37,481 bases of DNA from the IMG/VR virus record IMGVR_UViG_2534681936_000021, positions 1 through 37,481 of that record; one strand, 5' to 3'. This DNA is from a virus (Duplodnaviria > Heunggongvirae > Uroviricota > Caudoviricetes). Position numbers and translations under genes: made by a program. The notes beneath the pieces were generated by a model. It saw nothing but the letters and a program-made list of their open reading frames with translations. It had not been told where the DNA came from and made no database searches. The first letter of the stretch is position 1. Every line of letters begins with the position of its first letter. Of this stretch, positions 15,842 to 36,245 are shown one piece after another.

Positions 15842-15886
15842 TCACCTCACGGCGGGCATCATGCCCGCCTGTAACGGAGAGAAAAA

Positions 15887-17483: not shown

Positions 17484-17485
17484 CA

Positions 17486-18602: not shown

Positions 18603-18753
18603 CACTCCCACATGGGGAAATCTCGGTATATGGGGCGACCGCCTTCTGGATGCACTGGAAACCTGTAACGCGGATAAACGGGCCATTGAATTACTGGAAC
18701 AACGCAGGCTGCAACGACTGAACAACGAGGATAACAACCATGCTGAAAACTGA
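18463..18753 (+). CDS. o-spanin (Rz1/LysC-like lipoprotein) overlapping the i-spanin in another frame
   Basis: Lipobox LLTGC and proline-rich body; start embedded in the i-spanin gene. Confidence 0.55.
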   Translation: MNAPTLCLTLVLLTGCAGTQNAPLPAPSVRLIPQTLTIPVTPPPFPDTPTWGNLGIWGDRLLDALETCNADKRAIELLEQRRLQRLNNEDNNHAEN

Positions 18754-20760: not shown

Positions 20761-20763
20761 ATC

Positions 20764-21660
20764 ATGCCTGCTGTTGACCTTTCCCAGTTACCGGAACCAG
20801 CCATCATCGCGGAGCCTGATTTTGAGGCAATTCTGGCTGACACAAAGGCCATGATGATTGCGGCTTATCCCGCCGAACAGCGTGAAGCCGTTTCCGCCGC
20901 GCTGGAGCTGGAATCGGAACCCCTGAACGTTATCGCCCAGACAACAGCGTTTCGTGAAATGCTGTTACGCCAGCGGGTCAATGAGGGGGCACGCGCCTGC
21001 ATGTTAAGCCACAGCGCCGGGACAGACCTGGACAACCTCGCGGGCAATATGAACACAAAGCGCCTGACCATCACTCCGGCAACGGATACCACCGACGCGG
21101 TGATGGAGAGCGACACCTCGCTGAGACTGCGGGCGCAGCGGGCGTACGACGGCCTGAGTGTTGCTGGCCCGTCAGGTGCATACGAGTATTTTGCCCGCAG
21201 CGCCAGCGGTCTGGTGCGTGATGCGCGGGCTATCAGCCCGTCTCCGGCAAATGTGACGGTTTCCATCCTGTCCACTGAGGGCGACGGCACAGCAACGGAG
21301 GCGTTGCTTAATACCGTTCGCGCCGTTCTGAATGCAGAGGATACCCGCCCGGTGGCCGACCGCCTGACCGTACAGAGCGCCAGAATCGTGACATGGCGGC
21401 TGAATGCAAAACTGTACTTTTACCCCGGCCCGGAATCCGAACCTATTCTGGCCGCGGCTGAATCGTCGTTCAGGAAGTGGCTGGCTGAGCAGGGGCTTAT
21501 CGGTCAGGACGTGGCGTTGTCCGCCATTGCTGCCGCACTGCATGTGCACGGTGTGCAACGCGTGGAGATAATCGAACCCACACAGAATATGGCCATCAGC
21601 GACATACAGGCGGCGCGCTGTGAGTCATTCACCATCAGCGAAGGTGGACGCAATGAGTAA
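20764..21660 (+). CDS. J: baseplate protein gpJ-like
   Basis: 298 aa; position and size match P2 J. Confidence 0.85.
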   Translation: MPAVDLSQLPEPAIIAEPDFEAILADTKAMMIAAYPAEQREAVSAALELESEPLNVIAQTTAFREMLLRQRVNEGARACMLSHSAGTDLDNLAGNMNTKRLTITPATDTTDAVMESDTSLRLRAQRAYDGLSVAGPSGAYEYFARSASGLVRDARAISPSPANVTVSILSTEGDGTATEALLNTVRAVLNAEDTRPVADRLTVQSARIVTWRLNAKLYFYPGPESEPILAAAESSFRKWLAEQGLIGQDVALSAIAAALHVHGVQRVEIIEPTQNMAISDIQAARCESFTISEGGRNE

Positions 21661-22261
21661 TTCGTTGTTACCACCATCAGCCAGCAATTTCATGCGTTGT
21701 GCCGAAGCCGTCGGAACACGCATTACAGACATTCCGGTAGACCTCAACACGCTGTGGTCGCCGGACACCTGCCCGGTGCATCTGCTGCCTTATCTCGCCT
21801 GGGCGTTTTCCGTTGACCGCTGGGATCGCAACTGGCCGGAAGAGACAAAGCGACAGGTAATTCGTGATGCATGGCTGATACACCGACACAAAGGGACCAT
21901 CAGCGCACTGCGAAGAGCCGTGGAGCCTCTCGGCTACCTGATTGAAGTAAAGGAGTGGTGGCAACTCAACGAGGAGCCAGGAACATTTCGCATTGTTGTC
22001 GGAGTACTTGATCAGGGCATCACCGATGAAATGTATCAGGAACTTGAGCGCCTTATTGCGGATGCAAAACCAGTAAGTCGCCATCTGACGGGGCTGGCGA
22101 TCAGCCTGAGTGTGAACGGAAAGATTTTCGTTGGTACGGGATGCTATCACGGCGATGCCCTGACGGTTTATCCCTACACCCCGGAGTCCATTATTGTCGA
22201 AGGGGATTATTTCCCTGCCCCGGCCATTCATTTAATTGATAATCTGAGAGTAAACGCATGA
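21653..22261 (+). CDS. I: baseplate protein gpI-like
   Basis: ATG at 21653 with RBS aaggtgga upstream; overlaps the J stop. Confidence 0.8.
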   Translation: MSNSLLPPSASNFMRCAEAVGTRITDIPVDLNTLWSPDTCPVHLLPYLAWAFSVDRWDRNWPEETKRQVIRDAWLIHRHKGTISALRRAVEPLGYLIEVKEWWQLNEEPGTFRIVVGVLDQGITDEMYQELERLIADAKPVSRHLTGLAISLSVNGKIFVGTGCYHGDALTVYPYTPESIIVEGDYFPAPAIHLIDNLRVNA

Positions 22262-23892
22262 CAGTGAAATACTACGCCATTCTGACTAATCAGGGCGCAG
22301 CACGACTGGCTAACGCGACGATGCTCGGCAGTAAGCTGAATCTGACGCAAATGGCCGTTGGTGATGCAAATGGTGTGTTACCAACACCAGACCCTGCACA
22401 AACAAAACTGATTAACCAGAAACGCATTGCACCGCTGAATCTTCTGAGTGTTGACCCTAACAATCAGAGCCAGATTATTGCGGAGCAAATCATCCCTGAA
22501 AACGAGGGAGGATTCTGGATCCGTGAGATTGGTCTTTATGATGATGAAGGTGTACTCATTGCGGTGGCAAACTGCCCGGAAACGTACAAACCGCAGTTGC
22601 AGGAAGGCAGTGGACGCACCCAGACTATCCGCATGATTCTGGTTGTCACGAACACCGAAGCCATCACGCTGAAAATCGACCCGTCTGTGGTTCTGGCAAC
22701 CCGCAAATATGTGGATGATAAAATATCAGAGCACGAACAGTCACGACGTCACCCGGACGCCTCGCTGACCGTAAAAGGTTTTACTCAGTTAAGCAGTGCA
22801 ATTAACAGTGAATCAGAAACACTGGCCGCAACACCGAAAGCGGTTAAGGCTGCATATGACCTGGCTAACGAGAAATATACCGCCCAGAACGCCACCACTA
22901 CACAAAAAGGGATTGTTCAGCTCAGTAGCGCCACGAACAGCACGTCTGAAACACTGGCAGCGACACCAAAAGCTGTTAAGGCGGTAATGGATGAAACGAA
23001 CAAGAAAGCACCATTAAACAGCCCGGCACTGACCGGAACGCCAACAACACCAACAGCGCCACAGGGGACTAATAGTACCCAGATCGCAAGCACGGCTTTC
23101 GTTATGGCCGCGATTGCCGCACTTGTAGATTCGTCACCTGATGCACTGAACACGCTGAACGAACTGGCTGCGGCGCTGGGCAATGACCCGAATTTTGCGA
23201 CCACCATGACTAACGCGCTTGCGGGTAAGCAACCGAAGGATGCCACCCTGACGGCGCTGGCGGAGCTTGCTACATCAGCAGATAAACTCCCATATTTTAC
23301 AGGGGCAGATCGTGCCGCGTTAACCGCGTTGACAAGTGTTGGACGTGCCATTCTTGGTAAAACCAGCACTCAGGGAGTTCTTGATTACCTTGGTTTGGGA
23401 GAAGGTTCGGCATTACCCGTTGGTGTGCCTGTTCCGTGGCCTTCCGCCACTCCGCCAACAGGCTGGCTGAAATGCAATGGTGCGGCTTTTTCTGCTGAAG
23501 AATACCCGGAACTGGCAAAGGCTTATCCAACAAATAAATTACCTGATTTACGCGGTGAGTTTATTCGTGGATGGGATGATAGTCGTGGTATCGACAACGG
23601 GCGTGCGCTGCTTTCATCTCAAGGCCATTCACTCAGAGACCACTCACATAACCAGCAGATCTGGACAGGTTCAAATACAACATCGTCAACTATTGGTCAG
23701 GCCGGGAGTTATGCTCCGCTAGCAACTGGAGGGGATGGGGGGATTGCCTATACTGACCGGGAGCCTCAAAGCCTACCTTCAGCAGTAAGAGCTGTCAGCA
23801 CTCGTGGGGTTGCTTCTGACAATGCAGCGAATATTGGCACTGAAACCCGCCCGCGCAACATTGCATTTAACTACATCGTGAGGGCTGCATAA
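22258..23892 (+). CDS. H: tail fibre protein gpH-like; constant N-terminal part fused to variable C-terminus 1
   Basis: 544 aa; internal SETLAATPKAVKA repeats; the left inversion crossover site lies at codon 377-378. Confidence 0.85.
   Translation: MTVKYYAILTNQGAARLANATMLGSKLNLTQMAVGDANGVLPTPDPAQTKLINQKRIAPLNLLSVDPNNQSQIIAEQIIPENEGGFWIREIGLYDDEGVLIAVANCPETYKPQLQEGSGRTQTIRMILVVTNTEAITLKIDPSVVLATRKYVDDKISEHEQSRRHPDASLTVKGFTQLSSAINSESETLAATPKAVKAAYDLANEKYTAQNATTTQKGIVQLSSATNSTSETLAATPKAVKAVMDETNKKAPLNSPALTGTPTTPTAPQGTNSTQIASTAFVMAAIAALVDSSPDALNTLNELAAALGNDPNFATTMTNALAGKQPKDATLTALAELATSADKLPYFTGADRAALTALTSVGRAILGKTSTQGVLDYLGLGEGSALPVGVPVPWPSATPPTGWLKCNGAAFSAEEYPELAKAYPTNKLPDLRGEFIRGWDDSRGIDNGRALLSSQGHSLRDHSHNQQIWTGSNTTSSTIGQAGSYAPLATGGDGGIAYTDREPQSLPSAVRAVSTRGVASDNAANIGTETRPRNIAFNYIVRAA
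22790..22990 (+). repeat. in-frame tandem repeat in the tail fibre (two copies of the SETLAATPKAVKA-containing unit)
   Basis: Repeated peptide in the H translation. Confidence 0.5.
23378..23403. promoter_or_regulatory. left crossover site for the DNA invertase (gix/hix-like, 26 bp: ttcttgattacc-tt-ggtttgggagaa)
   Basis: 12-bp half-sites around a 2-bp core; inner half plus core is the exact reverse complement of 25254-25267. Confidence 0.65.
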
Positions 23893-24494
23893 TGACACAG
23901 GCAAAATTAAACAGTGAATTTATTGCCACAGTAGCGGGTGATATTACCGTCTATAACTATGACAACACGACACGGGAATACATTTCATCATCAACAGAAT
24001 ATCTTGCCGTTGGCGTCGGTATCCCGGCATGTTCTTGTTTAGATGCACCAGTTACACATAAAGCTGGTTATGCAATCTGCCGTTCTGCAGATTTTAACTC
24101 ATGGGAATATGTACCAGACCATCGCGGTGAAATCATCTATAGCACCGAAACAGGAGAATCGAAAGAAATCACAGCTCCGGGTGATTACCCTGAAAATACA
24201 ACCACTATCGCCCCGTTAACGCCATTCGATAAATGGGATGGTGAGAAATGGGTGACGGATACCGAGGCACAGCATAGCGCCGCACTAGACGCGGCAGAAG
24301 CAAAGCGCCAGTCGCTGATTGATGCTGCAATGGCTTCCATCAGTCTGATTCAGATGAAATTACGGGCCGGGCGGAAGCTGACGCAGGCAGAAACCACCCG
24401 ACTTAACGCTGTGCTGGATTACATTGACGCGGTGGAGGCAACAGATACCAGCACCGCGCCTGATGTCATCTGGCCTGAACTGCCGGAGGCGTAG
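23892..24494 (+). CDS. G: tail fibre assembly chaperone gpG-like (copy 1)
   Basis: 200 aa; C-terminal WPELPEA-type tail typical of fibre assembly proteins; follows H. Confidence 0.8.
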   Translation: MTQAKLNSEFIATVAGDITVYNYDNTTREYISSSTEYLAVGVGIPACSCLDAPVTHKAGYAICRSADFNSWEYVPDHRGEIIYSTETGESKEITAPGDYPENTTTIAPLTPFDKWDGEKWVTDTEAQHSAALDAAEAKRQSLIDAAMASISLIQMKLRAGRKLTQAETTRLNAVLDYIDAVEATDTSTAPDVIWPELPEA

Positions 24495-24906
24495 GCCATT
24501 CAATATCTGGCGCACCGGAAGTATCGACCAGTTCCAGTGCGTCCAGATAATCCAGCCACAAATTATATTGCGCCAGTTCCCCACCTTTCAGGCGACCAAT
24601 CGCCGCTTTACCAGGCCATTGCTTACTGTTTATGTATTCGTTGACCTGATTAATCAATTGCTGCTTTTCCAGTTCGGCTGCGGCAATTTGTTCCTCATGA
24701 GTTGGCGGTGGAGTATCAATCCATGCAGGCATTCCGTCGATGACACCTCTGTATTTTCCTTCTGGTGCTTCCTTCATAAATTCGGCGGCAACAGTGTCGT
24801 CAATTTCGATTCCATCACCGGGCCATTCGCCGGATTCCTGATAAGCGATTTTAAGCTCCACAGGGAAAAACGCATTTTTATCGGCACTGAAAATATATTT
24901 CTGCAT
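24466..24906 (-). CDS. tail fibre assembly chaperone, alternative copy (G')
   Basis: 146 aa, convergent with and overlapping G by 29 bp; similar C-terminal motif (DIEWPTPP). Confidence 0.75.
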   Translation of the reverse strand: MQKYIFSADKNAFFPVELKIAYQESGEWPGDGIEIDDTVAAEFMKEAPEGKYRGVIDGMPAWIDTPPPTHEEQIAAAELEKQQLINQVNEYINSKQWPGKAAIGRLKGGELAQYNLWLDYLDALELVDTSGAPDIEWPTPPAVQAR

Positions 24907-24908
24907 TT

Positions 24909-25307
24909 CTACCGTCCTATCGAAATATAACTGAATCTGTATTGCTGTGAGATATCACTGGTTGCCACACGCCACGCTGAATTACTGATATGTTCAAAAT
25001 TTACAGACAAAACCTGCGGGGCAGGATTCGACGGGGCTGACTGAACGGCATCAGACATAACACTGACTGAAACCATCGGCTGATTAGGGAATGGTATAGG
25101 GAAGTGTCCACTGATAAAGCGGGTCGTGTTTCCTGAAAAAGTGCCAAACTGAACAATATATCCACCTGGTAGCCTGAACCATCCCGAACCAGAAGCGAAT
25201 GCTCCCATATCCGGTATCTGATTATCTCCTGTGCCCACATTCCGTTTTGCCGCTTCTCCCAAACCAACGTTTAAGAAAATGCAGAGATTATGGCTAACTG
25301 GCATCAT
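24909..25307 (-). CDS. alternative tail fibre C-terminal segment (Hv'); functional only when fused to the H N-terminus by inversion
   Basis: Frame is continuous with the crossover core at 25265; translation after the core (GLGEAAKRNVG...) parallels H after its core (GLGEGSALPVG...). Confidence 0.6.
   Translation of the reverse strand: MMPVSHNLCIFLNVGLGEAAKRNVGTGDNQIPDMGAFASGSGWFRLPGGYIVQFGTFSGNTTRFISGHFPIPFPNQPMVSVSVMSDAVQSAPSNPAPQVLSVNFEHISNSAWRVATSDISQQYRFSYISIGR
25254..25279. promoter_or_regulatory. right crossover site for the DNA invertase (ttctcccaaacc-aa-cgtttaagaaaa)
   Basis: Inverted partner of 23378-23403; lies 56 bp upstream of the invertase gene. Confidence 0.65.
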
Positions 25308-25334
25308 CCCCGGTTTTTATTCAGGGGATCCATC

Positions 25335-25934
25335 ATGCTTATTGGCTATGTCCGCGTATCAACAAATGACCAGAATACAGAATTGCAGCGTAACGCGCTG
25401 GAGTGCGCAGGATGTGAACTGATTTTTGAAGATAAAATCAGCGGAACGAAATCAGCCAGACCGGGATTGAAAAAACTGATCAGAACGCTATCAGAAGGAG
25501 ATACGCTGGTTGTCTGGAAGCTGGACAGACTGGGCAGAAGTATGAAACACCTGATCACGCTTATTGAGGAATTGCGGGAAAAAGGTGTTAATTTCCGTAG
25601 TCTGACGGACAGCATTGACACATCAACACCCATGGGGCGTTTCTTTTTTCACGTCATGGGGGCTTTAGCCGAAATGGAACGTGAATTAATTGTAGAGCGT
25701 ACACTGGCCGGGCTGGCAGCAGCACGCGCACAAGGACGCATTGGCGGACGTCGCCCGAAGTTGACAAAAGAACAACACGAGCAAATAGCGAGGCTGATTA
25801 AAAACGGTCATGACAGGAAACAACTGGCGATCATTTACGACATCGGCATATCGACGATTTATCGTTATCACCCTGTAGGCGATATACAGGCTGAAGAAAC
25901 AACCAGGCAGACTCAGGAAAATGAAAACCGCTAA
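25335..25934 (+). CDS. serine DNA invertase (Gin/Hin/Pin/Cin family)
   Basis: N-terminus MLIGYVRVSTNDQNTELQ with the catalytic serine context; resolvase-type fold and C-terminal helix-turn-helix (GISTIYRY). Confidence 0.9.
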   Translation: MLIGYVRVSTNDQNTELQRNALECAGCELIFEDKISGTKSARPGLKKLIRTLSEGDTLVVWKLDRLGRSMKHLITLIEELREKGVNFRSLTDSIDTSTPMGRFFFHVMGALAEMERELIVERTLAGLAAARAQGRIGGRRPKLTKEQHEQIARLIKNGHDRKQLAIIYDIGISTIYRYHPVGDIQAEETTRQTQENENR

Positions 25935-25953
25935 TCTGACCATTAGCGGTTTT
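25924..25953. terminator. hairpin between the convergent invertase and U genes (aaaaccgctaat / attagcggtttt)
   Basis: 12-bp perfect stem spanning the invertase stop; short T-run on both sides. Confidence 0.45.
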
Positions 25954-25960
25954 GCGTTAA

Positions 25961-26455
25961 TCAAAACAGCCCTTTAACGGAGCTGGCCGCGCTGTTAAGG
26001 GATGATGTGACCTTATCTTTGAAGCCGGACAGCATATCACTGAACGATGAGGATTGCAGGCGCTCCCGCAAATCCTCATCACAGCGTTCAAGGGTCAGTG
26101 AAAATTCTATCTTTTTCGCCTTACCGTAGCGATCAAACTCGGAACGGGTCGTATTCGTTCCAGTCAGGACATACATGCCGTAAATCTGCCCGACGCCATC
26201 AATCAAAGGCCAGGGTCGTCCTGTATAAGCCTGCGTGGTCAGCAGCGACAGCGACACTTCGCCACCTGTAATTTCAGGATAAAGCACACCAGAAAGAACG
26301 ATGCGATCATCACCTGCACCGATATACTGCCAGCTTGCTGAACGGTTAATGCGTTCATTTTTCACATGCCGCCAGCTTTTGTTTTGCTGTAACTGCTGAT
26401 GCGGCAGCGTGCGCAGCTCAAAAACAAACATGCCGTAGATCATCATCATGGCCAT
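25961..26455 (-). CDS. U: tail protein gpU-like
   Basis: 164 aa, immediately downstream of the tape measure gene on the same strand. Confidence 0.8.
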   Translation of the reverse strand: MAMMMIYGMFVFELRTLPHQQLQQNKSWRHVKNERINRSASWQYIGAGDDRIVLSGVLYPEITGGEVSLSLLTTQAYTGRPWPLIDGVGQIYGMYVLTGTNTTRSEFDRYGKAKKIEFSLTLERCDEDLRERLQSSSFSDMLSGFKDKVTSSLNSAASSVKGLF

Positions 26456-26461
26456 GACTCC

Positions 26462-29305
26462 TCAATCTTTATCGTAAAAACTGCCACGCCCGGCACGGGC
26501 GCGCCGTTCCATTTCTGCCCTGACCATTTCACCGACCAGTTTCGCCAGTTCGCGGGGATTCTGCGTAACAACGTTATGCAGATGAACATGAATTTCACCA
26601 CCAAATTCGGAGGCAACAGGCTCCCGGTTACGGGAAGTTACAGGAACTGATGCCACTGGAGATCGTATAGCCTCCGCCACCGGGCGGGAGCTGGCCGCAA
26701 CAACAGTGACCAGCGCCGGAGGCAGCGGAGCCGGGACCACGGGTGTGATATTAATTGCGGGGGCAGGCTTACTGACCTGCGCAATCTTCCGCTCCTGCCA
26801 CTCCCCACGAACAGCAAGTGCCCGGGGCAGGTTTTTAAAGACAATATCGCCGGGGCCAATGCGTTTTTTCGTCTCCTCAACCAGCTTACCTGTGTTATCA
26901 GCAATTTTGCTGAGTCTGCGCAGCGTACCGGTATTGCTGTCTGTGAGCGGTTTATTGTCTTTGGGGTTATCACCTCCGGTGCCATTGCCATTTTCCACAG
27001 GCTTCGGCGGATTGATTTTCGCCAGGTCCCCCTGAAGCAAGGCAACCTTGTCCTGAAGAATGGCCGCACGCTGTGCGTCTTCGATTTTCTTGCGCGCCCT
27101 TTCCGCTTCATCCGGAAGCACACCAAGCTTTTCAAGTATCCACGCCAGCGTATCCAGCAACATTTTTGCAGGTGTCAGAACAAGTTGTAACGCACCGCCA
27201 AGAACGTTACCGAATATCTCGCCAGCACTGGTACATTTATCCAGAGTTTCCTTGCTGGACTCCATCGGTGACAGCAGCGATTTAAACCAGTTAAACACCT
27301 GGCTGATCCCACTCCCGATTGCGTCAAAAACAGGACTAAACCGTTCAAAGGTTTCGCGCAACGGGGTCAGCCTTTCCATAATCCCGCTGAACACCCCGGC
27401 AAAAAATGCCCTGATGGGATCCCAGTATTTCCAGATAAGAACGGCAGCTCCGGCAAGCGCAGCCACGATAAGACCAACCGGACTGAACAACGCCCCGATA
27501 GCGCCTCCCAGCAAAGAAACGGAACCCGTCACCATTCCCCATAGTGCTGGCAGAACCCTGACAGCATTCATTGATCCGGTCAGGAGGGAAAAACCAAGAC
27601 GCAGTTTTGCCAGCGGGCCAGCAAGCACACCAATAGCCAGCGACAACGAGCCAACCGTTGCAGTCATTGCCAGCAGTGCACCGCCTGCAATCAGTAGCTG
27701 GCGCGTCAGTGCGGGATGGGCCTGCGCCAGCGCCGTCACCTTTGATACCACACGCGTGAGCCACTGCGTGACAGAACGCAGCGGACCGTCAATCAGATCT
27801 GCAATGCGGATGCGCAACCCTTCCCATGCACTGCTGAGTGATTTCAGATCGCCGTCAAGGTTGTTGGCCATAACCTTTGCCGTGCGTTCAGCCTCACCGC
27901 GCGCACCTTCAAGTTCTTTTCTCAGTTTGGGTAAGGAGCCGTCACCTGCCGCATCAACGAGGGCCATAAATGATGTGAAAGCCTCTTCTCCGGCAATGTC
28001 CTTAAAGAACGATACCCGGTCAACTTCCCCGTATTTGCGGGTAGCTTTATAAAGGTCAGCCAGCACATCCTCCATCGGACGCATTTTGCCCCCGGCATCC
28101 GAGACAGACACGCCAAGCTCTTTCAGCGCCTCTGCTGCCGCCTTTGGCGGTGATGCCAGACGAGCCAGGCTGGCACGCATTGCCGTCCCGGCATCACTCC
28201 CCCTGATACCCATATTCGCCAGCACGCCTGCCATCGCTGCGGCCTGCTCCAGCGATATTCCCAGCTTACCCGCCACCGGACCTGCATATTTCATGGTTTC
28301 ACCCAGTGCGCGAAGGTCAGTGTTGGTACGGGTAAACGCTGCGGTGAGTGTGTCGCCGACCCGGTCCATCTGGTCAGCAGAAAGACCGAACTGCGTCAGA
28401 ATATTTGAGCCAATATCCGCCGTCTCACCGAGGTCCATACCGCCAGCCGTTGCCATGCTCAGTACGCCAGGGAGCGCAGCCTGAATGGCCTGTGGTGTGA
28501 AGCCGGCCATTGCAAGAAATGCCTGCCCACTGGCGGCATCGCCTGCGGTGAACTGCGTTTCAGAGCCAAGTTTTAACGCCTGCTCACGCAGCGCCTTAAA
28601 CTGCGGGCTGTTTTTGTCGATTCGCGTCAGTGCCTGAACGCGGGACATCTCTTTCCCGAACCCGATCGCAGGCTGCAAAAAACGCCCGGCAGCATAGCCG
28701 CCCGCAGCTGCCGCACCAATTGCCAGCGCACCACCTGTTTTCAGTTTTCCCGCTGTTTCCTGCGCGCGCGAATACCGCTCACGCGCCCGCGTTACACGCG
28801 CAAGCGCCTGCCGTTCGCGTTCAAGCTGGTTGTTGTACTGTTCGGTGCGTCTGATGGCCTGCTGGATGGTGTTATCGCTGCCTGTCAGGGAAATGCCGTG
28901 GCGTTTCAGCTCTCCGCCAAGCTCCCGCATTTTCTGAATTTCCCGTGTGCGCGATTCATTCAGGCGTTCAAGCCGGGTGCTTAACTGCTGCATCAGCTTT
29001 TGTTGTTTTTCGCTGAGCACTGTACCCGTGCGTTGTAACTGATTAAGGGCGTTAAGCTGGCGTCGTGCTTTCACGATACCCGCATCCGCTTTACTGACAG
29101 CGTCGCGGGCGCGCTCAAATGAACGCGCCTGACGCTCGAGATTTTTGATCGCCCCCTGCGTTCGCTGGATGGAGTCACCAAACTGCCCCATCAGGCGGCG
29201 GGCGTTTTCGGCAGGCCGGGTCAGCCTGTCAACGGCGCTGAAAGCGACCCGGATATCAAGAGTCTTCATTGTCTGCATTCCCGCTGCGAAGTGCCGCCCG
29301 CTCAC
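26462..29305 (-). CDS. T: tail tape measure protein gpT-like
   Basis: 947 aa, coiled-coil N-terminal half and glycine/alanine-rich hydrophobic central region. Confidence 0.85.
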   Translation of the reverse strand: MSGRHFAAGMQTMKTLDIRVAFSAVDRLTRPAENARRLMGQFGDSIQRTQGAIKNLERQARSFERARDAVSKADAGIVKARRQLNALNQLQRTGTVLSEKQQKLMQQLSTRLERLNESRTREIQKMRELGGELKRHGISLTGSDNTIQQAIRRTEQYNNQLERERQALARVTRARERYSRAQETAGKLKTGGALAIGAAAAGGYAAGRFLQPAIGFGKEMSRVQALTRIDKNSPQFKALREQALKLGSETQFTAGDAASGQAFLAMAGFTPQAIQAALPGVLSMATAGGMDLGETADIGSNILTQFGLSADQMDRVGDTLTAAFTRTNTDLRALGETMKYAGPVAGKLGISLEQAAAMAGVLANMGIRGSDAGTAMRASLARLASPPKAAAEALKELGVSVSDAGGKMRPMEDVLADLYKATRKYGEVDRVSFFKDIAGEEAFTSFMALVDAAGDGSLPKLRKELEGARGEAERTAKVMANNLDGDLKSLSSAWEGLRIRIADLIDGPLRSVTQWLTRVVSKVTALAQAHPALTRQLLIAGGALLAMTATVGSLSLAIGVLAGPLAKLRLGFSLLTGSMNAVRVLPALWGMVTGSVSLLGGAIGALFSPVGLIVAALAGAAVLIWKYWDPIRAFFAGVFSGIMERLTPLRETFERFSPVFDAIGSGISQVFNWFKSLLSPMESSKETLDKCTSAGEIFGNVLGGALQLVLTPAKMLLDTLAWILEKLGVLPDEAERARKKIEDAQRAAILQDKVALLQGDLAKINPPKPVENGNGTGGDNPKDNKPLTDSNTGTLRRLSKIADNTGKLVEETKKRIGPGDIVFKNLPRALAVRGEWQERKIAQVSKPAPAINITPVVPAPLPPALVTVVAASSRPVAEAIRSPVASVPVTSRNREPVASEFGGEIHVHLHNVVTQNPRELAKLVGEMVRAEMERRARAGRGSFYDKD

Positions 29306-29474
29306 GCCAGCTAACCACTTCGCCGGGCGTCATCATGAAGATTTCGGCGGGCGACCAGTTAAAAATAACGGCAATATCTGCCACAAAGTCTTCTATGTGC
29401 TCAAAGCACACAACCGTGATCAGGCTTCCGTCGCCTGTTCGTTCTTCCCGCCAGAGTCCGCACCGCTCAAAAAA
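29256..29474 (-). CDS. E' extension, expressed as an E+E' fusion by programmed -1 frameshift
   Basis: ORF in the -1 frame continues from the slippery site and overlaps the T start. Confidence 0.6.
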   Translation of the reverse strand, partial: FFERCGLWREERTGDGSLITVVCFEHIEDFVADIAVIFNWSPAEIFMMTPGEVVSWRERAALRSGNADNEDS

Positions 29475-29785
29475 TTTACGGCAACCACACATAACTGAAT
29501 AAAGTCACGGGATGCTATTTTTTTGATCGTCACTTCATCCAGTCGCGGTGATGTCACGCGTGACAGCAGCGTAAACATGGATTCCGCTTTCAGATTCAGC
29601 ACATCAGACAGCGACAAATCTCGCAGAGATCCAGCCTGCTCAATAGCTCCGGTGATCTCCACATACGTGATTTTTTCGCCGCCTCGCTCAATTGGTTGGG
29701 TAAGTTTTACGCCACGCTCACTGGTTTCTTTCACAGTGTCAGCAACGACCGTGTTTTCGGTATCGATGTTTTTCGTCTCTTTCAT
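29420..29785 (-). CDS. E: tail assembly chaperone gpE-like
   Basis: 121 aa; RBS aaggag upstream; lies between the tube and tape measure genes. Confidence 0.8.
   Translation of the reverse strand: MKETKNIDTENTVVADTVKETSERGVKLTQPIERGGEKITYVEITGAIEQAGSLRDLSLSDVLNLKAESMFTLLSRVTSPRLDEVTIKKIASRDFIQLCVVAVNFLSGADSGGKNEQATEA
29468..29474 (-). other. slippery heptamer T_TTT_TTG for the programmed -1 frameshift (E to E+E')
   Basis: TTTTTTG in the correct register near the 3' end of E (zero-frame codons TTT TTG). Confidence 0.65.
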
Positions 29786-29839
29786 CAGGAAACTCCTTTC
29801 AGTCAGAGGCGACGCACTGCGCCGCCTGCATATTACTTA

Positions 29840-30352
29840 TCAGCCAAGCCCGAGCGCGGAACGGATGCGATCGGGCACAATGTCCTTGCCGTCCTTCCGG
29901 TAAATGAAGTTCAGCAGGTCAATCTCCCACAACGGGCGATCGTTAACACTCAGCTTGTAGTAGGTGTTTTTAATGGCGTAAGTGTGTGATGTGGCTTCGC
30001 CCTGTTTGGCTTCCCCCATATCAATTTCCGTCACACGTCCGCGCATTTCGACTTCATACAGGTCGCTTTCTGCATCGGTGTAATATTCACCCGCAAAACG
30101 CAGCAGCGTGCCGTCAATCGTGCCGCCATACTTAAGGAACAGCTCACGAACTGCGCCCCCCATGACAAAGCTCGCATCAAGCGCGGAGTCGTCCAGACCG
30201 AGATCAATACTTACCGCCCCCATCATGCCACCACCCCGGTAGCTGTCGGTTTTGCGCGTCAGCTTAGGCAGAGTGACGGACGTCACCTTACCCACTTCGT
30301 TTTCACCATCCACAAACAGCGTAAAAAAGCGAAGATGTTTTGGCACAGCCAT
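29840..30352 (-). CDS. FII: tail tube protein gpFII-like
   Basis: 170 aa directly downstream of the sheath gene. Confidence 0.85.
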   Translation of the reverse strand: MAVPKHLRFFTLFVDGENEVGKVTSVTLPKLTRKTDSYRGGGMMGAVSIDLGLDDSALDASFVMGGAVRELFLKYGGTIDGTLLRFAGEYYTDAESDLYEVEMRGRVTEIDMGEAKQGEATSHTYAIKNTYYKLSVNDRPLWEIDLLNFIYRKDGKDIVPDRIRSALGLG

Positions 30353-31536
30353 CAGGCACCTCCCAGCACCGCAAATGCGGGACCAAAGAATTCATCAGTA
30401 AACGTCTGGTAAAGCTCCATGTCTTCCAGTGGCGGAACGGGCGTATATTTGTAGCGAATACGCACACGCCCCTGACGTAAATCCGTGGTGCCGTTATCCA
30501 CCACGTCATACCAGCACGACGCCCCAATCAGTTTCCCGGCAGTAACCAGTGAATCCAGTTTTGCCCTGATGGCACTGATAACATCTTTCACGTTCGCAGG
30601 CGTCAGTGGACTGTCGATGGTTTCAAACTGCGCTTCCGCAATTGAATCAGCCAGCACCTGTGCGGTTCGGGTATACACCTCAAAGATGTAGGCGTTCGTT
30701 TCCGGTGTGCGGTTGCCCCAGAAGCGGAACCCGTTGCGACGAATAATGGTCGTGATTTCTTTGTTGTTGAGGCTGTTGGCATCACTGTCTTCGGCCTGCA
30801 ACGACCAGAACACATGCCTCGACATCCCCAGCACATTCTTAACCGGAACGTTGGAGAGTGATTTGTGCCATCCCTGCTCATGGTCAATGTACGCACGAAG
30901 GCCGCACGCATAGGCAGGCGCGGGGAACGTTTCGTTTTTGCCACTTTTCGGGTTGTAGGCGATGAAGTCCGGCCATAAGAGCATCACCTCACGTTCGTTG
31001 AATTTCTGGCGGTAGGTAATCGCATCAGCCATCGTGTCACAGCCATGACATGAGGCATACACAAACGCGCGCAGTTTACCCGCAATCACGCACAGGGATT
31101 TTGTCACCGCCTCCGTATCCAGCTCCGGCGCGGCCAGAATACGCGGACGGTATCCGATGCTTTCATCCTGCTCTGCAACAAGCAGCGCATACATCCCCGT
31201 ATAGCTGCCGTCAGATTCAGAACCACCGATAACCAGTTGATCCTGCGTTTTTCCGTCTTCTTCTTTGTGTTCAGCCACGCGAACGACGATCACCTTTGTG
31301 CTCACCTGGTCTGCGATGGCCTTAAGCGCACGATAAAGCGTCCCCGTTGTTCCGCATTTTCCCAGCACGTCATTGACGCGGGTCAGCAGTGTGGGCTTGT
31401 TCAGCGGGAACAGCTCCGCGTCCGCATCATCCGCCGTTGCCACGATACCGATAACACTGGAATCAACATCATTAATCGCTGTTACCAGGTCGGTACTTTC
31501 CGTAACACGGGCACCATGAAAACGAGTTTCACTCAT
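30352..31536 (-). CDS. FI: contractile tail sheath protein gpFI-like
   Basis: 394 aa; segments FPLNKP, KLRAF, WPDF, DHEQGWHKSLSNV, RRNGFRFWGNRT, YTRTAQV and YTPVPPLE resemble P2 FI as recalled. Confidence 0.9.
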   Translation of the reverse strand: MSETRFHGARVTESTDLVTAINDVDSSVIGIVATADDADAELFPLNKPTLLTRVNDVLGKCGTTGTLYRALKAIADQVSTKVIVVRVAEHKEEDGKTQDQLVIGGSESDGSYTGMYALLVAEQDESIGYRPRILAAPELDTEAVTKSLCVIAGKLRAFVYASCHGCDTMADAITYRQKFNEREVMLLWPDFIAYNPKSGKNETFPAPAYACGLRAYIDHEQGWHKSLSNVPVKNVLGMSRHVFWSLQAEDSDANSLNNKEITTIIRRNGFRFWGNRTPETNAYIFEVYTRTAQVLADSIAEAQFETIDSPLTPANVKDVISAIRAKLDSLVTAGKLIGASCWYDVVDNGTTDLRQGRVRIRYKYTPVPPLEDMELYQTFTDEFFGPAFAVLGGA

Positions 31537-31693
31537 AGCTTCAGCCCCTTGTATCCGTTAAATGATTCGGCAACAATCATCACCCACCACGCGCGTAATC
31601 TCACTCCTGCGCCGTTCTCCCGCCACGGCGACAACAAAAAGCAGTAACCCCCTCCGCACGCACATGCGACCATGCCGCACAGGGAGGGAACAG

Positions 31694-32802
31694 ATGACCG
31701 ACACCACCATGCAATTGCTCAGTCAGGGCACAGACCCCGTGAAAATGCCGGATTTTGATATTCTCGCGGAGGGTAAAACGCTGTCAGGCGTGGCAGAGCG
31801 CCTGATGAGCCTGTCACTGACCGACAACCGGGGATTTGAAGCGGACCAGCTCACCATCACGCTGGATGATGCGGATGGTCAGTTGCAGCTACCGCCACGG
31901 GGCGCGCGCCTGACGGTTCTCATTGGCTGGAAAGGAGAACCGCTGACAGAAAAAGGCACTTACATTGTTGATGAAATCGCTCACGAAGGACCGCCGGACA
32001 GGCTGACTGTTTCAGCCAGAAGCGCAGATTTTCGGGATGAATTTAACGTTAAACGTGAGGTGTCCTGGCATGATGTGACCGTTGAGCGTGTGGTATCCGC
32101 CATCGCTCATCGGTACGGTCTGAAACCGCAAATCAGCGAAATGCTGATGGATATCGAAATCGACCACGCCGACCAGACCGAAGAAAGCGACATGTCCTTC
32201 CTTACGCGCATGGCGGAAATGCTGGGCGCAATCACCACGGTAAAAAGCGGCAATCTGTTATTCATCATGCCTGGTGGTGGCGTGAACGCACAGGGCCAGC
32301 CGTTGCCCTCGTTCGCCATTACACGCAGCAGTGGCGATCGCCATCAGTTCCGCATTGCTGACCGCGAGGCGTATACGGGTGTACGCGCCTACTGGCTTGA
32401 TCTTAATTACGGGAAAAAGAAAAAGTCAGCGTGAAACGCCGCAAACCGCCAAAACCCAAAAAGGAGAAAAGCAGCAGCCGTGAAGGTGATTATATGGAAG
32501 GCGCGGAAGGCAATGTGTTTGTGTTACGCAAGACTTATCAGAACGAGCAGGCAGCAAGACGCGCAGCGGCGGCAAAGTGGCAGCAGCTACAACGCGGAGC
32601 CGCATCATTCTCCATCATGCTGGCACGCGGACGCGCAGAACTCTACCCCGAAATGCATGGCACGGTAACAGGCTTTAAAAGCGAGATTGATAATCAGGAC
32701 TGGATTATTGCAAAAGCCGAGCACACCATTGATAACAGCGGCTTTACCACACAGCTTGAGCTTGAGGCAAAAATCCCGGAATGGATAGCAGAAACAGAGT
32801 GA
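31694..32802 (+). pseudogene. D: late control / tail protein gpD-like, split by a single-base frameshift in the gggaaaaagaaaaag run (about 32411-32430)
   Basis: Track ORFs ending at 32434 and starting at 32431 together give a gpD-like protein (...SWHDVT..., ...GDRHQF..., ...QDWIIAKAEH...SGFTTQLELE...). Confidence 0.75.
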
Positions 32803-32870
32803 GCAACTTAGACATATTAGCTCAGACTTAAACTGGCAAGTTTACAGTATAGAATTAAACATAAACGACG

Positions 32871-32899
32871 GTCCGCTCCGTGTCAGAAGCGGACTTTGT
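32871..32899. terminator. hairpin between convergent D and the 340-aa gene (gtccgct / agcggac followed by TTTGTC)
   Basis: 7-bp stem flanked by A-rich and T-rich sequence. Confidence 0.45.
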
Positions 32900-32922
32900 C
32901 ATCCCTATGTAAGGTTGATTGC

Positions 32923-33945
32923 TTAATACGCATTTAATTTAAATTTGTATTTGCCTTCTATGTAATGGATAAATTCAATTATGCTTTTTTCTATCGCATC
33001 TAATATATGAATATATCCATCCCGATTTAAGGTCCTATCCAACTCAAAGTGATGAACTATCCCATGTCTATATTGTATGATTTCAGAAATTCGATTCTCA
33101 AGAAAATCAACTGATTTTCCAATTCTTTTTTTCTTATAAAGAATCGCTCTCACATCTATATCCAGCCACTCTTTATATGCTTTGTTTAGGTGGGTTAAGT
33201 TTTGAAAAGTGTAATTTCTTGCAATAACACTTTCTATTGAAATATTTCCTTTCTCTATCTCAAGCAGAATATCAAAATCAACTTTTTGCTTATACGATGT
33301 TCTTTTTGCTATTGCGAAAGGATCGTACTTTATAAGTATTTGAAAAGCTCTAGAGAAAAAATATTCAAACATAGCAACCGCAAAAGGTACTAATCCATTA
33401 TATATAACTCTACTGGGATCCATACATTGCATGTAATCAAAGTATTCGGATAAGCCGCCATCTTCCGGTAGGTTTAATTTAATAGAAGGTTCAGGTAAGG
33501 CATGTTTAACAGCGGAAATCTCATGATGGACATGATTAAATATTGAAGAAATGCCACGACTGATCGGACTACTAGAATCCTTCCATAGAGGAGCGTACCT
33601 ATTTTTCCCATAATCACCTATAAGTGTTCCACCAAAAAGACTCCGTGCGCCTTTTAGAACATCATTAAGCATTTTTACATCATGCCAACTAGCGCTATAT
33701 AAATTACGCACATGCAATGCCCATTTATTACCAGATATGTGTAGTTCGTCATTTGAAACAGGATATATATCAGCCGAAACTCCATCTGTAGATTTGAAGT
33801 CCGTATCATCAAACCAAGAGTAATTCAACGTTCCTTGGGGCCATTCCCACAAATGTTTACACCTTTTAAAACCTAAATTTTCAAGGTAATTTTTAAGTTC
33901 GTTTCTAGTTGCTTTTTTAGGGTACAGCGTTATATCTCTTCCCAT
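32923..33945 (-). CDS. hypothetical 340-aa protein in an AT-rich insertion; C-terminal Rx4HH motif (candidate HEPN-like abortive-infection protein)
   Basis: Long clean ORF in markedly AT-rich DNA between D and ogr; motif YRHGIVHHFE near the C-terminus. Confidence 0.6.
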   Translation of the reverse strand: MGRDITLYPKKATRNELKNYLENLGFKRCKHLWEWPQGTLNYSWFDDTDFKSTDGVSADIYPVSNDELHISGNKWALHVRNLYSASWHDVKMLNDVLKGARSLFGGTLIGDYGKNRYAPLWKDSSSPISRGISSIFNHVHHEISAVKHALPEPSIKLNLPEDGGLSEYFDYMQCMDPSRVIYNGLVPFAVAMFEYFFSRAFQILIKYDPFAIAKRTSYKQKVDFDILLEIEKGNISIESVIARNYTFQNLTHLNKAYKEWLDIDVRAILYKKKRIGKSVDFLENRISEIIQYRHGIVHHFELDRTLNRDGYIHILDAIEKSIIEFIHYIEGKYKFKLNAY

Positions 33946-34136
33946 GCTTTATTCACCTGATATACAATATTTTAAATTTTAACTATTATGAACGTATGAA
34001 TTTTCACATTGGATGTATGGAAGTTCAACAACTATTGAAAGTTCAATTTTCACTCTTCGCACAGAGCGAGCTGTTAGTTGGAATTAGGGATCGTACAATC
34101 TAGAATAGCGGCAACACCACGTTAAGGGAGGTCGCT

Positions 34137-34397
34137 ATGTTCCGTTGTCCGCTTTGTGGCGCATCTGCCCGTATCCGCACAAGTCGTCCGGAAAATGATT
34201 CAAACACCGTGCGGCAAAAGTATTACCAGTGTAACAATCTGGAATGCGGCGTATGCTTCTCAACACTGGAAGCTTTCCATAAATTCACATCGAAACACGC
34301 CTCCGGCGTTCACTCTTCAGAAGGTATCCCGTGGCATGAGCTACCAGCTTCACACAGGGGAAACAATCAGATGAGTTTGCCTTTACCTCAGAATTAA
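34137..34397 (+). CDS. ogr: Ogr/Delta-family zinc-finger late transcription activator
   Basis: MFRCPLCGA...CNNLEC zinc-finger pattern typical of P2 Ogr; RBS agggagg upstream. Confidence 0.8.
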   Translation: MFRCPLCGASARIRTSRPENDSNTVRQKYYQCNNLECGVCFSTLEAFHKFTSKHASGVHSSEGIPWHELPASHRGNNQMSLPLPQN

Positions 34398-34588
34398 CAA
34401 GCAGAATTGCCGGAGTAACAAAAAAGCGATAGATTACGCGCGGGTGCCTTTCGGCTGATGGTCGGAGGGAATACCCGAAGGCCAGATGTGGAAAGGCCCC
34501 GGAAAACACTTTTGTTTAACCGAGGCCCTAACCGTCTACCCTAAGCAAGTGAAAGGTTAGCGCCTCTCCGGAAAAGGAGCAAGTGCTA

Positions 34589-34729
34589 TGTCGCAAAAAT
34601 CGCTTACAGCCATCACGTTCTGCGTGACGGTAATCCTCATCATCTGGATGTTGCACGGTTCGCTGTGCGAAATACGGATGAGTTTCTGGGGAGCGGAGTT
34701 TGCGGCGTTCTTACAGTGTAAGCAGTAAG
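34589..34729 (+). CDS. Hok/Gef-family type I toxin (46 aa), below the ORF-track size cutoff
   Basis: MSQKSLTAITFCVTVILIIWMLHGSLCEIR...AEFAAFL: transmembrane helix followed by the Hok-like SLCEIR and E(F/V)AAF motifs; RBS aaggag 8 nt upstream. Confidence 0.6.
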
Positions 34730-34738
34730 GAAACCGCG

Positions 34739-34760
34739 ACGGGGGAGTAATCCCCCGTCA
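34739..34760 (+). other. stable 9-bp hairpin just 3' of the hok-like ORF (gacggggga-gtaa-tcccccgtc)
   Basis: Perfect inverted repeat 10 nt after the stop; consistent with a hok mRNA 3' fold. Confidence 0.5.
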
Positions 34761-34989
34761 ATCGGTTGCCAGGGTAAGGTCGATAAGGCACCCTATCTCA
34801 CGGCTCTAAATGCAAAAATTCCATGAAACTGTGGGATTTTTGCATCACTACTGATACAGATCTGACCTTCTTTATGTCTCACTCTATACCAGCTAATCAA
34901 TTGACACTTATCAATAAAAAAAAATCTGATAAAATCAAAATGTTTTGTAACAAATATCAACTCGTATTGATCCAAAGGAGGCGGATTAC

Positions 34990-35322
34990 ATGGCATTAAT
35001 CAAATGTCCTGAATGCCAGAAAGAGGTGAGCGATTCAGCATTGTATTGCCCTGCTTGCGGTAAACAAATAAAAAAACTTAAGCGTTCATTTTTTGGAAAG
35101 CTCATTAAGTGGATTTTTATATTATTTAATATTTTTATGATCTATACGCTTTTAGTTGGACTGGGAGGCACTAGTGAAATAATAAATAATGCTACATCCG
35201 ATGCCGAAAAAGCCGGTGCAGTTATTGGTACAGGCTTAGGTTTAATTACCATTGGAAGTTTATGGGTTATTGGCGATATCATTATCGGAATTTTAGTGTT
35301 TCTTACTAAACCAAAAGGATAA
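34990..35322 (+). CDS. zinc-ribbon membrane protein (110 aa)
   Basis: N-terminal CPEC...CPAC zinc ribbon followed by two hydrophobic helices; AT-rich context. Confidence 0.5.
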   Translation: MALIKCPECQKEVSDSALYCPACGKQIKKLKRSFFGKLIKWIFILFNIFMIYTLLVGLGGTSEIINNATSDAEKAGAVIGTGLGLITIGSLWVIGDIIIGILVFLTKPKG

Positions 35323-35326
35323 CAAA

Positions 35327-36218
35327 ATGAAAAATATAATTTTTCTATAGGTGCATCATTTATATCAATTGGTGTACTGCCTGTTCACGCAGCAACTGAA
35401 CATAATAACTTCAATGCAGTACTCCAGTGCCGAGCAATAGAAAATAATAAAGACAGACTTTCTTGTTACGATAAGTCAATACAACCGACTCGAACGAAAG
35501 TTGCTGAAAAATTCGAAAGCAGAGATCAATGCCCTGATGAGAAAGATGATGACAGACGTTTATCTTGTTATGATCGTTTTTTTCTCCAACATTTACTCCA
35601 TCTGTAAACTCAAAATCTAAAACGGAAAAGCCAGTAACAACAGAGGCTCAGCAACCAAATCTTTCTGAGATATCTAAATGCCGAGCAGAAAATGATAAAG
35701 AAGCCAGACTAAACTGCTACGATAAACTATTCCCACAGGATAAAGCTGTTCAAGCTGAATCAAAATTAGAGAAAGCCACAGATGTAGGAAAATGGCACAC
35801 ATCCATTACTACATCGCCAATTGATGATTCGAAAAATGTAATTTTATCGTTAGAAAGTGATGATTATATCAGAACTCCATTTGGAGAAGCGGTTACTCCT
35901 ACTCTGTTTATAGCTTGCCGAGAAAAGAAAACCGAAGTATTTCTTGGTTGGGATGTATATTTAGGCCTTGAACAAACCAGCATGCTTTATCGTCTTGATA
36001 AACAGAAAGCAGTTGAGCGAAACTGGCTAGTATCTACAGATACAAAGGCTGTTTTTTATAAAGGTAATGACATTGATTTCATCCGAAAACTAGCCAACTC
36101 AAACAAAATGTATACAAAAATAACTCCTTATAATGAGAGCCCTGTAAGTGCAACTTTCAATTTAAACGGCCTGTCAAACGCGCTAAAACCACTTCAAGCT
36201 GCTTGTAACTGGAAATAG
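35327..36218 (+). pseudogene. frameshifted gene for a secreted protein with three Cys-x9-10-Cys-Tyr-Asp repeats
   Basis: Signal-peptide-like start (MKNIIF...); frame breaks at T-runs near 35340 and 35577-35583; an ATG-less open frame continues to 36218. Confidence 0.45.
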
Positions 36219-36245
36219 CATAAATCATGTGGCTTAGCCACAATC

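Follow-up and report, generated by a model that had tools for sequence, protein, structure and literature searches.

A P2-like prophage group of Enterobacterales in which the sheath-to-gpU tail block lies opposite to its P2 orientation

Introduction

When a block of tail genes lies on the opposite strand to that expected from phage P2, is this a fault of the assembly, one state of a genetic switch, or the normal gene order of the lineage, and how could the gene cut off from its operon still be transcribed? This question is raised by the IMG/VR virus record IMGVR_UViG_2534681936_000021, whose 37,481 nucleotides (hereafter, the window) we analysed as a whole. In the P2 record (NC_001895), the genes FI, FII, E, E', T, U, and D form one plus-strand operon located 3' of H and G, as the original prediction for this locus had stated. 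In the window, by contrast, U, T, E/E', FII, and FI are encoded on the minus strand, and I, H, G, an invertase gene, and D on the plus strand.

Results

The tail gene block and its neighbours

Gene identities and strands were assigned by Pfam profile matches (Table 1), except for gene E (29420-29785), which had no match in the Pfam search and was identified by tblastn against P2 gpE and by its position. The original prediction had placed FI to U on the minus strand and D on the plus strand, divergent from FI, and the Pfam and tblastn matches agreed with it at exactly the coordinates listed here. The block encodes a P2-type contractile tail module (sheath, tube, E with E', tape measure, and gpU) with its internal FI-to-U order preserved. 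The longest open reading frame of T begins with GTG at 29305; the RefSeq annotation of a near-identical prophage, that of DEC5A, starts it at ATG 29269. Direct reading of the minus strand revealed a slippery heptamer T-TTT-TTG in the E frame at 29474-29468, near the end of the gene, and the -1 frame (E') remains open to 29256, overlapping the T start at 29269, a configuration that qualifies as a predicted programmed -1 frameshift of the E/E' type. Whereas the P2 F operon has D directly 3' of U on the same strand, here D is divergent from FI and lies 5.2 kb from U.

Table 1 Features of the window discussed in the text.
Feature	Position	Strand	Evidence and remarks
Second copy of the Ogr-type dyad	13838-13863	+	P-O divergent spacer; TCT-N12-ACA at 13840-13857
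H	22258-23892	+	
Invertible tail-fibre segment, 1.9 kb	23385-25272		Outside the FI-U block; one gix-like site at each end, the only ones in the window
G	23892-24494	+	
Serine DNA invertase, Gin/Cin/Hin type	25336-25934	+	Pfam Resolvase 1e-51 and HTH_7
Hairpin	25924-25953		12-bp stem AAAACCGCTAAT/ATTAGCGGTTTT flanked by an A-run and a T-run; between convergent invertase and U
gpU homologue, tail protein	25961-26455	-	Pfam Phage_P2_GpU 1.2e-38; final gene of the block
gpT, tape measure protein	26462-29305	-	Pfam PhageMin_Tail 3.7e-58
E+E' product	29256-29785	-	Predicted -1 frameshift; E' frame ends at 29256
gpE	29420-29785	-	tblastn match to P2 gpE and position; GpE-family CDS annotated in DEC5A
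gpFII, tail tube protein	29840-30352	-	Pfam Phage_tube 7.5e-47
gpFI, tail sheath protein	30352-31536	-	Pfam Phage_sheath_1, Gp18_domIII_N, Phage_sheath_1C; first gene of the putative leftward unit
Divergent FI-D control region, 157 bp	31537-31693		Two putative back-to-back late promoters
Candidate Ogr-type activator dyad, GTTCT-N12-ACAACAAAA	31614-31639	+	TCT 31616-31618, ACA 31631-31633; centre 31624.5
gpD, baseplate hub / 'late control D'	31694-32802	+	Pfam Phage_GPD in two pieces; divergent from FI
Sigma-70-like promoter match	34078-34106		Promoter scan; listed with the ogr gene
Ogr/Delta-family zinc-finger late activator	34137-34397	+	Pfam Ogr_Delta 5e-14

In the window, D is broken into two pieces (31694-32434 and 32431-32802), which cover positions 48-207 and 218-304 of the Phage_GPD profile. 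Alignment with the phages P88 and 500465-2 attributes the break to the loss of one nucleotide from a run of A (A5 at 32420-32424, A6 in the relatives); among P88, 500465-2, DEC5A, and the window it was noted in the window alone, and D is intact in DEC5A (369 aa). The prophage of the window may therefore not make tails given this frameshift, or the missing base may be a sequencing error. An N-terminally extended D reading frame from ATG 31562 was discarded: it would run through part of the control region, whereas the alignment of related loci keeps ATG 31694 with its GGAGG-type site. The interval between D and ogr holds a low-GC gene of 340 aa in the window and in 500465-2; a PADLOC search matched neither this gene (32923-33945) nor a zinc-ribbon gene.

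The neighbouring invertase and the tail-fibre segment

A serine invertase gene directly adjoins the block, so that the FI-U genes might be flipped by this enzyme, or by some other recombinase, the window representing one of two states. The gene is convergent with U, adjoins the right-hand gix-like site, and is annotated as a DNA invertase in P88 (NC_026014) and 500465-2 (NC_049343). However, a gix/cix-like 19-mer searched across the window with up to three mismatches matched only at 23385-23403 and 25254-25272 (0 expected by chance), that is, at the ends of the tail-fibre segment and at neither boundary of the FI-U block. Likewise, no inverted repeat across 22000-33000 had arms at both ends of the block; in two pairs (I11 and I15), one arm lay close to where the invertase gene begins, but with 79-80% matches these were set aside as chance-like. 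The original prediction had found no gix-like sites at the block boundaries and had judged an invertase-mediated inversion unsupported, and both statements stand.

In the tail-fibre segment itself, one strand carries the variable C-terminal part of H together with G, the other an alternative G' (24466-24906) and the C-terminus of H' (24909-25307). The neighbouring invertase serves solely this segment. The FI-U block not only lacks inverted crossover sites at its ends but is not found in both orientations among near-identical copies: the simulated flipped U/D junction was contiguous in none of the 1411 E. coli genomes holding its halves, as against 1363 genomes for the observed FI/D junction. 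An invertase homologue was undetected in most of the fetched loci with the same gene order, and a flip would part FI from its putative promoter region. The P2-like phage Fels-2 (Felsduovirus, NC_010463) also has an invertible tail-fibre segment, and its invertase gene lies between those for the fibre and the sheath, but its FI to D genes are collinear with H/G in the P2 fashion; the presence of the invertase thus does not go with the inverted block. All these observations leave a programmed switch with hardly any probability.

The same gene order in other phages and genomes

The window corresponds to a P2-like prophage of the P88/500465-2 type, family Peduoviridae. The original prediction had treated its arrangement as an anomaly, either a ~5.6-kb inversion relative to the canonical order or an assembly artefact. 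That a 5.6-kb piece was misoriented in this particular assembly is suggested by nothing beyond the difference from P2, and the relatives speak against it. An FI-U block opposite to H/G and D is annotated in the isolated phages P88 (Xuanwuvirus), 500465-2 (Gemsvirus), SEN4 (Senquatrovirus), and phiSM, and tblastn recovered it in the unannotated Kp4848-1 (Reipivirus). The phages with inverted order belong to four ICTV genera; P88, 500465-2, SEN4, and Kp4848-1, with identical order, were sequenced independently. The phages phiSM and P884B11 are collinear with the window through the block, at ~94% identity. In this P88-like clade, FI-U is convergent on H/G (or on the invertase gene), and D and ogr are divergent from FI, as in the window. 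The same order was found in 23 further genome loci, which come from 15 named Enterobacterales genera and from one record labelled Vagococcus.

We classified by tblastn a set of 67 sequences, comprising the window and 66 distinct fetched loci. The inverted order was present in 30 of them (window included), all with FI at least 55% identical to that of the window (55-99% in the 29 other loci). Of the remaining 37 sequences, 34 contain FI as well as D, and these without exception had the P2 order; every P2-order locus retrieved through the FI search had an FI with at most 48% identity. At a larger scale, we examined 5426 complete E. coli genomes: 1104 were collinear with the window over the 7.7-kb stretch spanning invertase, U, FI, and D, and in 1363 (approximately one quarter) the observed FI/D junction was contiguous. 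The prophage of E. coli O55:H7 DEC5A, which adjoins flk, is collinear with the last 17.3 kb of the window and 99.99% identical to it, differing only by the base in the D A-run and one mismatch. Plaque formation is documented for P88, phiSM, and SEN4, myovirus morphology for P88 and SEN4, and tail contraction for P88 (PMC5285337, PMC6456863, PMC5261728). The papers describing P88, phiSM, and SEN4 nowhere mention inversion, orientation, or gene order, and a search for literature on synteny in Xuanwuvirus or Peduoviridae returned nothing relevant; the gene order itself is already on record.

Given this conservation in related phages and genomes, we exclude, with a confidence close to certainty, an assembly artefact or a strain-specific rearrangement. 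The proposed inversion holds in the evolutionary sense, relative to P2, and the artefact offered as its alternative does not; nor is the arrangement an anomaly, being shared as the norm by P88, 500465-2, SEN4, Kp4848-1, and the 23 additional loci, which is the very outcome that the original prediction had named as refuting it. In annotation, a sheath-to-gpU block that runs against H/G and D is no reason to mark a prophage as rearranged or misassembled, since a very common prophage group of E. coli and other Enterobacterales has this layout as its standard.

Origin of the inverted order

In neighbour-joining trees of FI and D (midpoint-rooted and without bootstrap), the inverted-order loci formed one clade nested among P2-order taxa, which points to a single old inversion, since fixed, relative to an ancestral P2 order. 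Outside one Enterobacterales clade, the P2 order was observed in every alpha-, beta-, and gammaproteobacterial lineage sampled, so that parsimony also favours a single inversion. It might be argued instead that the divergent order is ancestral and the P2 order derived, or that the tail module was replaced by recombination from another phage: the trees are midpoint-rooted and P2-like phages are mosaic, SEN4 and Kp4848-1 falling outside the main inverted group in the tree of J, which fits such mosaicism. However, besides the distribution of the P2 order, FI and D share the same clade, and SEN4 is basal within it in both the FI tree (inside the block) and the D tree (outside it), as would be expected if both sides had co-diverged after one event. 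We consider both an ancestral divergent order and a module replacement improbable. It is very likely, taking all the evidence jointly, that one old, fixed inversion gave rise to what is now the normal order of this clade, with late transcription units that would begin in the FI-D spacer.

Late gene control

In Ogr/Delta-dependent late promoters, the late gene is preceded by a partial dyad (TGT-N12-ACA) ~55 nt from the transcription start. The exact TGT-N12-ACA pattern had three matches in the window, fewer than expected by chance and none in a late spacer. An alignment of 25 distinct FI-D spacers of the clade showed conserved blocks and revealed TCT/TGT variation in the left half-site, after which we replaced the exact pattern with a relaxed dyad. 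In this way, the search for late-promoter elements upstream of D and FI advised with the original prediction yielded a candidate Ogr-type dyad at 31614-31639, with the left half TCT instead of the canonical TGT (Table 1); the relatives L021, L023, and SEN4 have a perfect TGT-N12-ACA in the alignment. The P-O and FI-D spacers of the window carry the same dyad motif, and these are the only two matches of the dyad pattern in the window, both perfect even when two mismatches are allowed (0.36 expected at that setting). Of the 30 inverted-order loci, 23 have a single copy of the relaxed dyad, in the FI-D spacer or at its position; the full P88 genome has two copies, and the P2-order loci searched have none. 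CCGTTCTCC was also considered as a motif common to both spacers and rejected, since its spacing differs and the only consistent copy is the one at N12 from ACAACAAAA.

The dyad, the D start codon, and the D ribosome-binding site are all conserved in the spacer alignment. The FI-D and P-O spacers also agree in how far from the dyad they place a CGCGCG-type element (CGCACGCAC before D) and -10-like hexamers, the latter weak (GATGAT for FI, GACCAT for D). The distance from the FI ATG to the dyad centre is 88.5 nt, compared with 82.5 nt in P2 pF. By the geometry of P2, transcription is predicted to start near 31569 leftward and near 31680 rightward. In the P2 record, pO and pP have one activator site in common, annotated in the P-O interval, and the dyad between FI and D would similarly activate two promoters; it probably drives FI-U leftward and D rightward. 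The block would then be a leftward late transcription unit that begins in the 157-bp spacer and stops at a hairpin common to the convergent invertase gene. This hairpin (25924-25953) was matched by a terminator scan, has an RNA folding energy of -20.3 kcal/mol (z = -2.0), and is a probable bidirectional intrinsic terminator; most same-order loci have a hairpin just 3' of U, often G+C-rich.

The original prediction was right that D is separated from its operon. The likely answer to this separation is that D has its own ribosome-binding site and a conserved Ogr-type dyad 70 nt away; having lost the upstream operon, it would be transcribed rightward from the FI-D spacer. Since the activator site is dyad-symmetric, moving with FI could at once have given the orphaned D late control on its other side. 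Counting the P-O dyad, this would give the window no more than two bidirectional control regions for its late genes. That the whole late regulon of the clade depends on two such hubs (P/O and FI/D), with one Ogr-type dyad each, and that the inversion was tolerated thanks to the dyad borne with FI, is a proposal for which we see an even chance. If true, an operon was split by inversion without loss of regulation, and a symmetric activator site may serve both of its new neighbours. Such an example of a split operon would be relevant to P2 late gene control, whose general picture remains unchanged.

Comparison with known systems

The closest relatives, P88, 500465-2, and the DEC5A prophage, agree with the window throughout the region from S to ogr, in the succession of genes as well as in their strands; this holds for the invertible fibre segment, the invertase, the opposite-strand U-FI block, and the divergent D. 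The two phages are ~95% identical to the window in DNA over 22000-35000. P88 differs in its tail-fibre tips and has no annotated gene between D and ogr, where the gap is too short for the 340-aa gene of the window and 500465-2. The segment at 23385-25272 resembles the G segment of Mu and the C segment of P1 (Gin/Cin), with inverted gix-like sites, alternative fibre C-termini and assembly proteins, and an adjacent serine invertase. This likeness is confined to the fibre segment and does not extend, in any of these respects, to the 5.6-kb FI-U block.

With the P2 F operon (FI-FII-E-E'-T-U-D under pF), the window shares the gene set, the internal order, and the position of the E/E' slippery heptamer. 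P2 and the window also both have a gene for an Ogr-family activator and, 80-90 nt before FI, a dyad, which in the window is a candidate site. The window differs from P2 in the inverted FI-U block, in a D that lies outside the operon and does not overlap U, in the TCT of the left dyad half, and in an FI only ~46-47% identical to P2-type sheath proteins. The nearest parallel to the FI-D spacer is P2 pP/pO, where one dyad lies between two divergent late units, about equally far from each; the window would add to this a second hub of the same kind, FI/D, which P2 does not have.

Gene map of the prophage

The window is a P2-like (Peduoviridae) prophage with a small amount of host DNA. The identities of FI, FII, T, U, D, I, H, G and the invertase were backed by Pfam, whereas E, which had no Pfam match, was identified by its position and a tblastn match to P2 gpE. 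E contains a slippery heptamer (T-TTT-TTG, 29474-29468), after which the -1 frame has no stop before 29256 and extends over the T start, the same E+E' arrangement as in the P2 annotation. The FI-U block (sheath FI, tube FII, chaperone E/E', tape measure T and tail protein U) is a regular P2-type tail module. P88 carries annotated ParM and partition proteins at the position matching the ParM homologue of the window; its presence in a P2-like prophage hints at a plasmid-like maintenance option.

Features of the prophage and adjoining host DNA
Feature	Position	Strand	Remarks
Integrase	1-1020	minus	
gpA	5085-7943		early gene
ParM homologue	7968-8927	plus	full-length, early region; StbA_N 6e-82, ParM C-terminal 3e-67
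Q and P	10978-13775	minus	
Dyad	13838-13863		P-O divergent spacer; motif match
O to G	13897-24494	plus	single long run
Invertible tail-fibre segment	23385-25272		~1.9 kb, after O-G run
gix-like site	23385-23403		inside H
Alternative assembly protein	24466-24906	minus	
Alternative H C-terminus	24909-25307	minus	
gix-like site	25254-25272		right
Serine invertase	25336-25934	plus	Pfam
12-bp hairpin	25924-25953		between U and convergent invertase
U, T, E/E', FII, FI	25961-31536	minus	
Dyad	31614-31639		FI-D spacer; motif match, centre 31624.5
D (baseplate hub)	31694-32802	plus	Pfam
Low-GC (~34%) gene	32923-33945	minus	340 aa, between D and ogr
ogr (Ogr/Delta-family late activator)	34137-34397	plus	
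hok/gef-family toxin	~34589-34729		DEC5A annotation homology
Zinc-ribbon membrane protein	34990-35322		DEC5A annotation homology
TagO/VasI-like gene	35982-36218 (Pfam VasI match)		DEC5A annotation homology
Host gene flk	from 36486	plus	

The low-GC gene between D and ogr gave a weak, sub-threshold Pfam match to RiboL-PSP HEPN (1e-4) and no PADLOC match; it may be a cargo or defence gene. Phage 500465-2 and the prophage of Escherichia coli O55:H7 strain DEC5A have it annotated too; P88 has nothing annotated between D and ogr, and its gap is too small for a 340-aa gene. The right-end cargo spans 34589-36219, followed by host flk at 36486; its TagO/VasI-like gene is frameshifted in DEC5A.

The tail module is inverted relative to P2

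In the P2 reference record, H/G is followed by a single plus-strand operon, FI-FII-E-E'-T-U-D, with pF as its promoter. Gene calls and Pfam placed FI-U of the window at exactly the coordinates of the original prediction, on the other strand than H/G and D. Its orientation is thus the reverse of that in P2, and a 157-bp spacer separates the divergent genes FI and D.

A scan of the window for gix/cix-like 19-mers (up to three mismatches) matched only the two sites flanking the fibre segment, with 0 expected; both belong to an 18-nt inverted repeat with 94% complementarity (repeat I6). Together with the invertase, this segment (23385-25934) is of the Mu G/P1 C type, encoding alternative assembly proteins and fibre tips. 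None of the inverted repeats found had an arm at each end of the FI-U block, and the block showed neither of the two features tested for an invertase-controlled segment. The prediction had likewise reported no gix-like sites at the block boundaries and regarded invertase-mediated inversion as unsupported, rightly: no invertase is involved.

It had also named an assembly artefact as an alternative. Of 5426 complete E. coli genomes, 1104 had the 7.7-kb stretch invertase-U-FI-D collinear, unbroken and with at least 80% coverage. The real FI/D junction (600-nt query) was contiguous in 1363 complete E. coli genomes, and a simulated flipped junction, with U abutting D, in none of the 1411 holding both halves. 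The DEC5A prophage differs from the last 17.3 kb of the window by one mismatch and one gap. The FI-U arrangement is neither an artefact nor a switch. P88, phiSM and SEN4, which have the inverted order, are plaque-forming phages, P88 and SEN4 being classed as myoviruses by electron microscopy, with tail contraction seen in P88; the published descriptions of the three do not mention the inversion (PMC5285337, PMC6456863, PMC5261728). This order is therefore compatible with full function.

Gene D itself is split in the window into ORFs at 31694-32434 and 32431-32802. Within 32396-32440, AAAAAGAAAAAAG has lost 1 nt, so that an A5 run (32420-32424) replaces the A6 of P88, 500465-2 and DEC5A. D is intact in these three (369 aa in DEC5A), and the split would be due to a sequencing error in the homopolymer or to a very recent inactivating mutation. 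The RefSeq D of 500465-2 (12422-13663 of its fetched locus L001; NC_049343 gp33) begins 132 nt ahead of the conserved start codon and extends across the FI-D control region, probably an over-extended CDS call.

The same order is normal in P88-like phages

Megablast of 22000-35000 against phage records yielded collinear matches at ~95% identity in the Escherichia phages 500465-2 (Gemsvirus), P884B11 and P88 (Xuanwuvirus), and also in 520873, PhiR44_2 and Citrobacter phage phiSM. As annotated, 500465-2 and P88 have a plus-strand invertase, minus-strand tail protein, tape measure, tube and sheath, then plus-strand D. SEN4 (Senquatrovirus; FI 55% identical) and Klebsiella phage Kp4848-1 (Reipivirus) share the inverted order without an invertase, whereas Fels-2 has an invertase, yet P2 order.

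We fetched 59 loci encoding FI relatives, one genome per species, and used tblastn, with proteins of the window and of P2 as queries, to classify gene order in the window and 66 distinct fetched loci. The order was inverted in 30 loci, including the window, all with FI at least 55% identical to that of the window (tblastn). Their records bear the names of 15 Enterobacterales genera (Escherichia, Salmonella, Citrobacter, Edwardsiella, Enterobacter, Kosakonia, Symbiopectobacterium, Pantoea, Mixta, Erwinia, Izhakiella, Kluyvera, Trabulsiella, Klebsiella and Serratia), plus one record labelled Vagococcus. The latter (L006, NZ_JBQPOM010000071.1, Vagococcus sp. WN89Y) is a Firmicutes-assigned 226-kb contig with an inverted-order prophage whose FI is 98% identical to that of the window; it is almost certainly enterobacterial DNA, probably through contamination or a mislabelled assembly. 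Among the remaining 37 loci, all 34 with both FI and D had P2 order, and three gave no D match. P2-order loci derive from alpha-, beta- and gammaproteobacteria, and each of those retrieved via the FI search had FI at most 48% identical to that of the window.

In neighbour-joining trees (without bootstrap) of FI and D, genes lying within and outside the block respectively, the inverted loci formed one clade nested among P2-order sequences, with SEN4 basal; the J tree had SEN4 and Kp4848-1 in other positions, in line with the mosaicism known for P2-like phages. The simplest reading is one old inversion, later fixed. On every feature tested, the block agrees with the P88-like clade. The inverted order is normal for P88-like phages, its layout is already in public annotated records, and the finding is ordinary. 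The original interpretation is partly right: inversion relative to P2 without an invertase stands, but relatives carry this order as their normal, conserved one, the very observation named beforehand as contrary to it.

A dyad probably shared by FI and D

The motif GTTCT-N12-ACAACAAAA has exactly two matches in the window, both perfect, with 0.36 expected by chance at two mismatches. The annotated activator sites of P2 were found to contain a partial dyad, TGT-N12-ACA/CCA, to which the core of the motif, T(C/G)T-N12-ACA, corresponds. An exact TGT-N12-ACA search of the window gave no match in the late spacers, where the left half-site is non-canonical; L021, L023 (two fetched relatives) and SEN4 have a perfect TGT-N12-ACA at the FI-D position. 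Of the 30 loci with the inverted order, 23 each had a single copy of the relaxed motif, lying within the FI-D spacer or at its position; the complete P88 genome had two copies and the P2-order loci none.

The distance from the dyad centre is 88.5 nt to the FI ATG (82.5 nt in P2 pF) and 69.5 nt to that of D. Annotated P2 start sites are ~55-57 nt from the site centre, with a single site annotated for both pP and pO; this geometry would predict starts near 31569 (leftward, FI) and 31680 (rightward, D). A CGCGCG-type element (CGCACGCAC before D) and weak -10-like hexamers (TAATCT, GATGAT and GACCAT) recur at a common offset towards P, towards FI and towards D. D is preceded by a ribosome-binding site of its own, GGGAGGG, and its start codon is conserved across the clade. 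The leftward unit from FI would end at the hairpin after U; most relatives have a hairpin there, many G+C-rich. These sequence features suggest that the shared dyad probably controls both FI-U and D, the sole mildly new idea here.

S and V overlap (19835/19832; region 19191-20413) and the window has no third dyad, so that two bidirectional hubs appear to organise the late genes, O to G apparently forming one unit of ~10.6 kb. P2, in contrast, has a separate V promoter region, and D lies downstream of U in its F operon, a defining feature from which the block departs.
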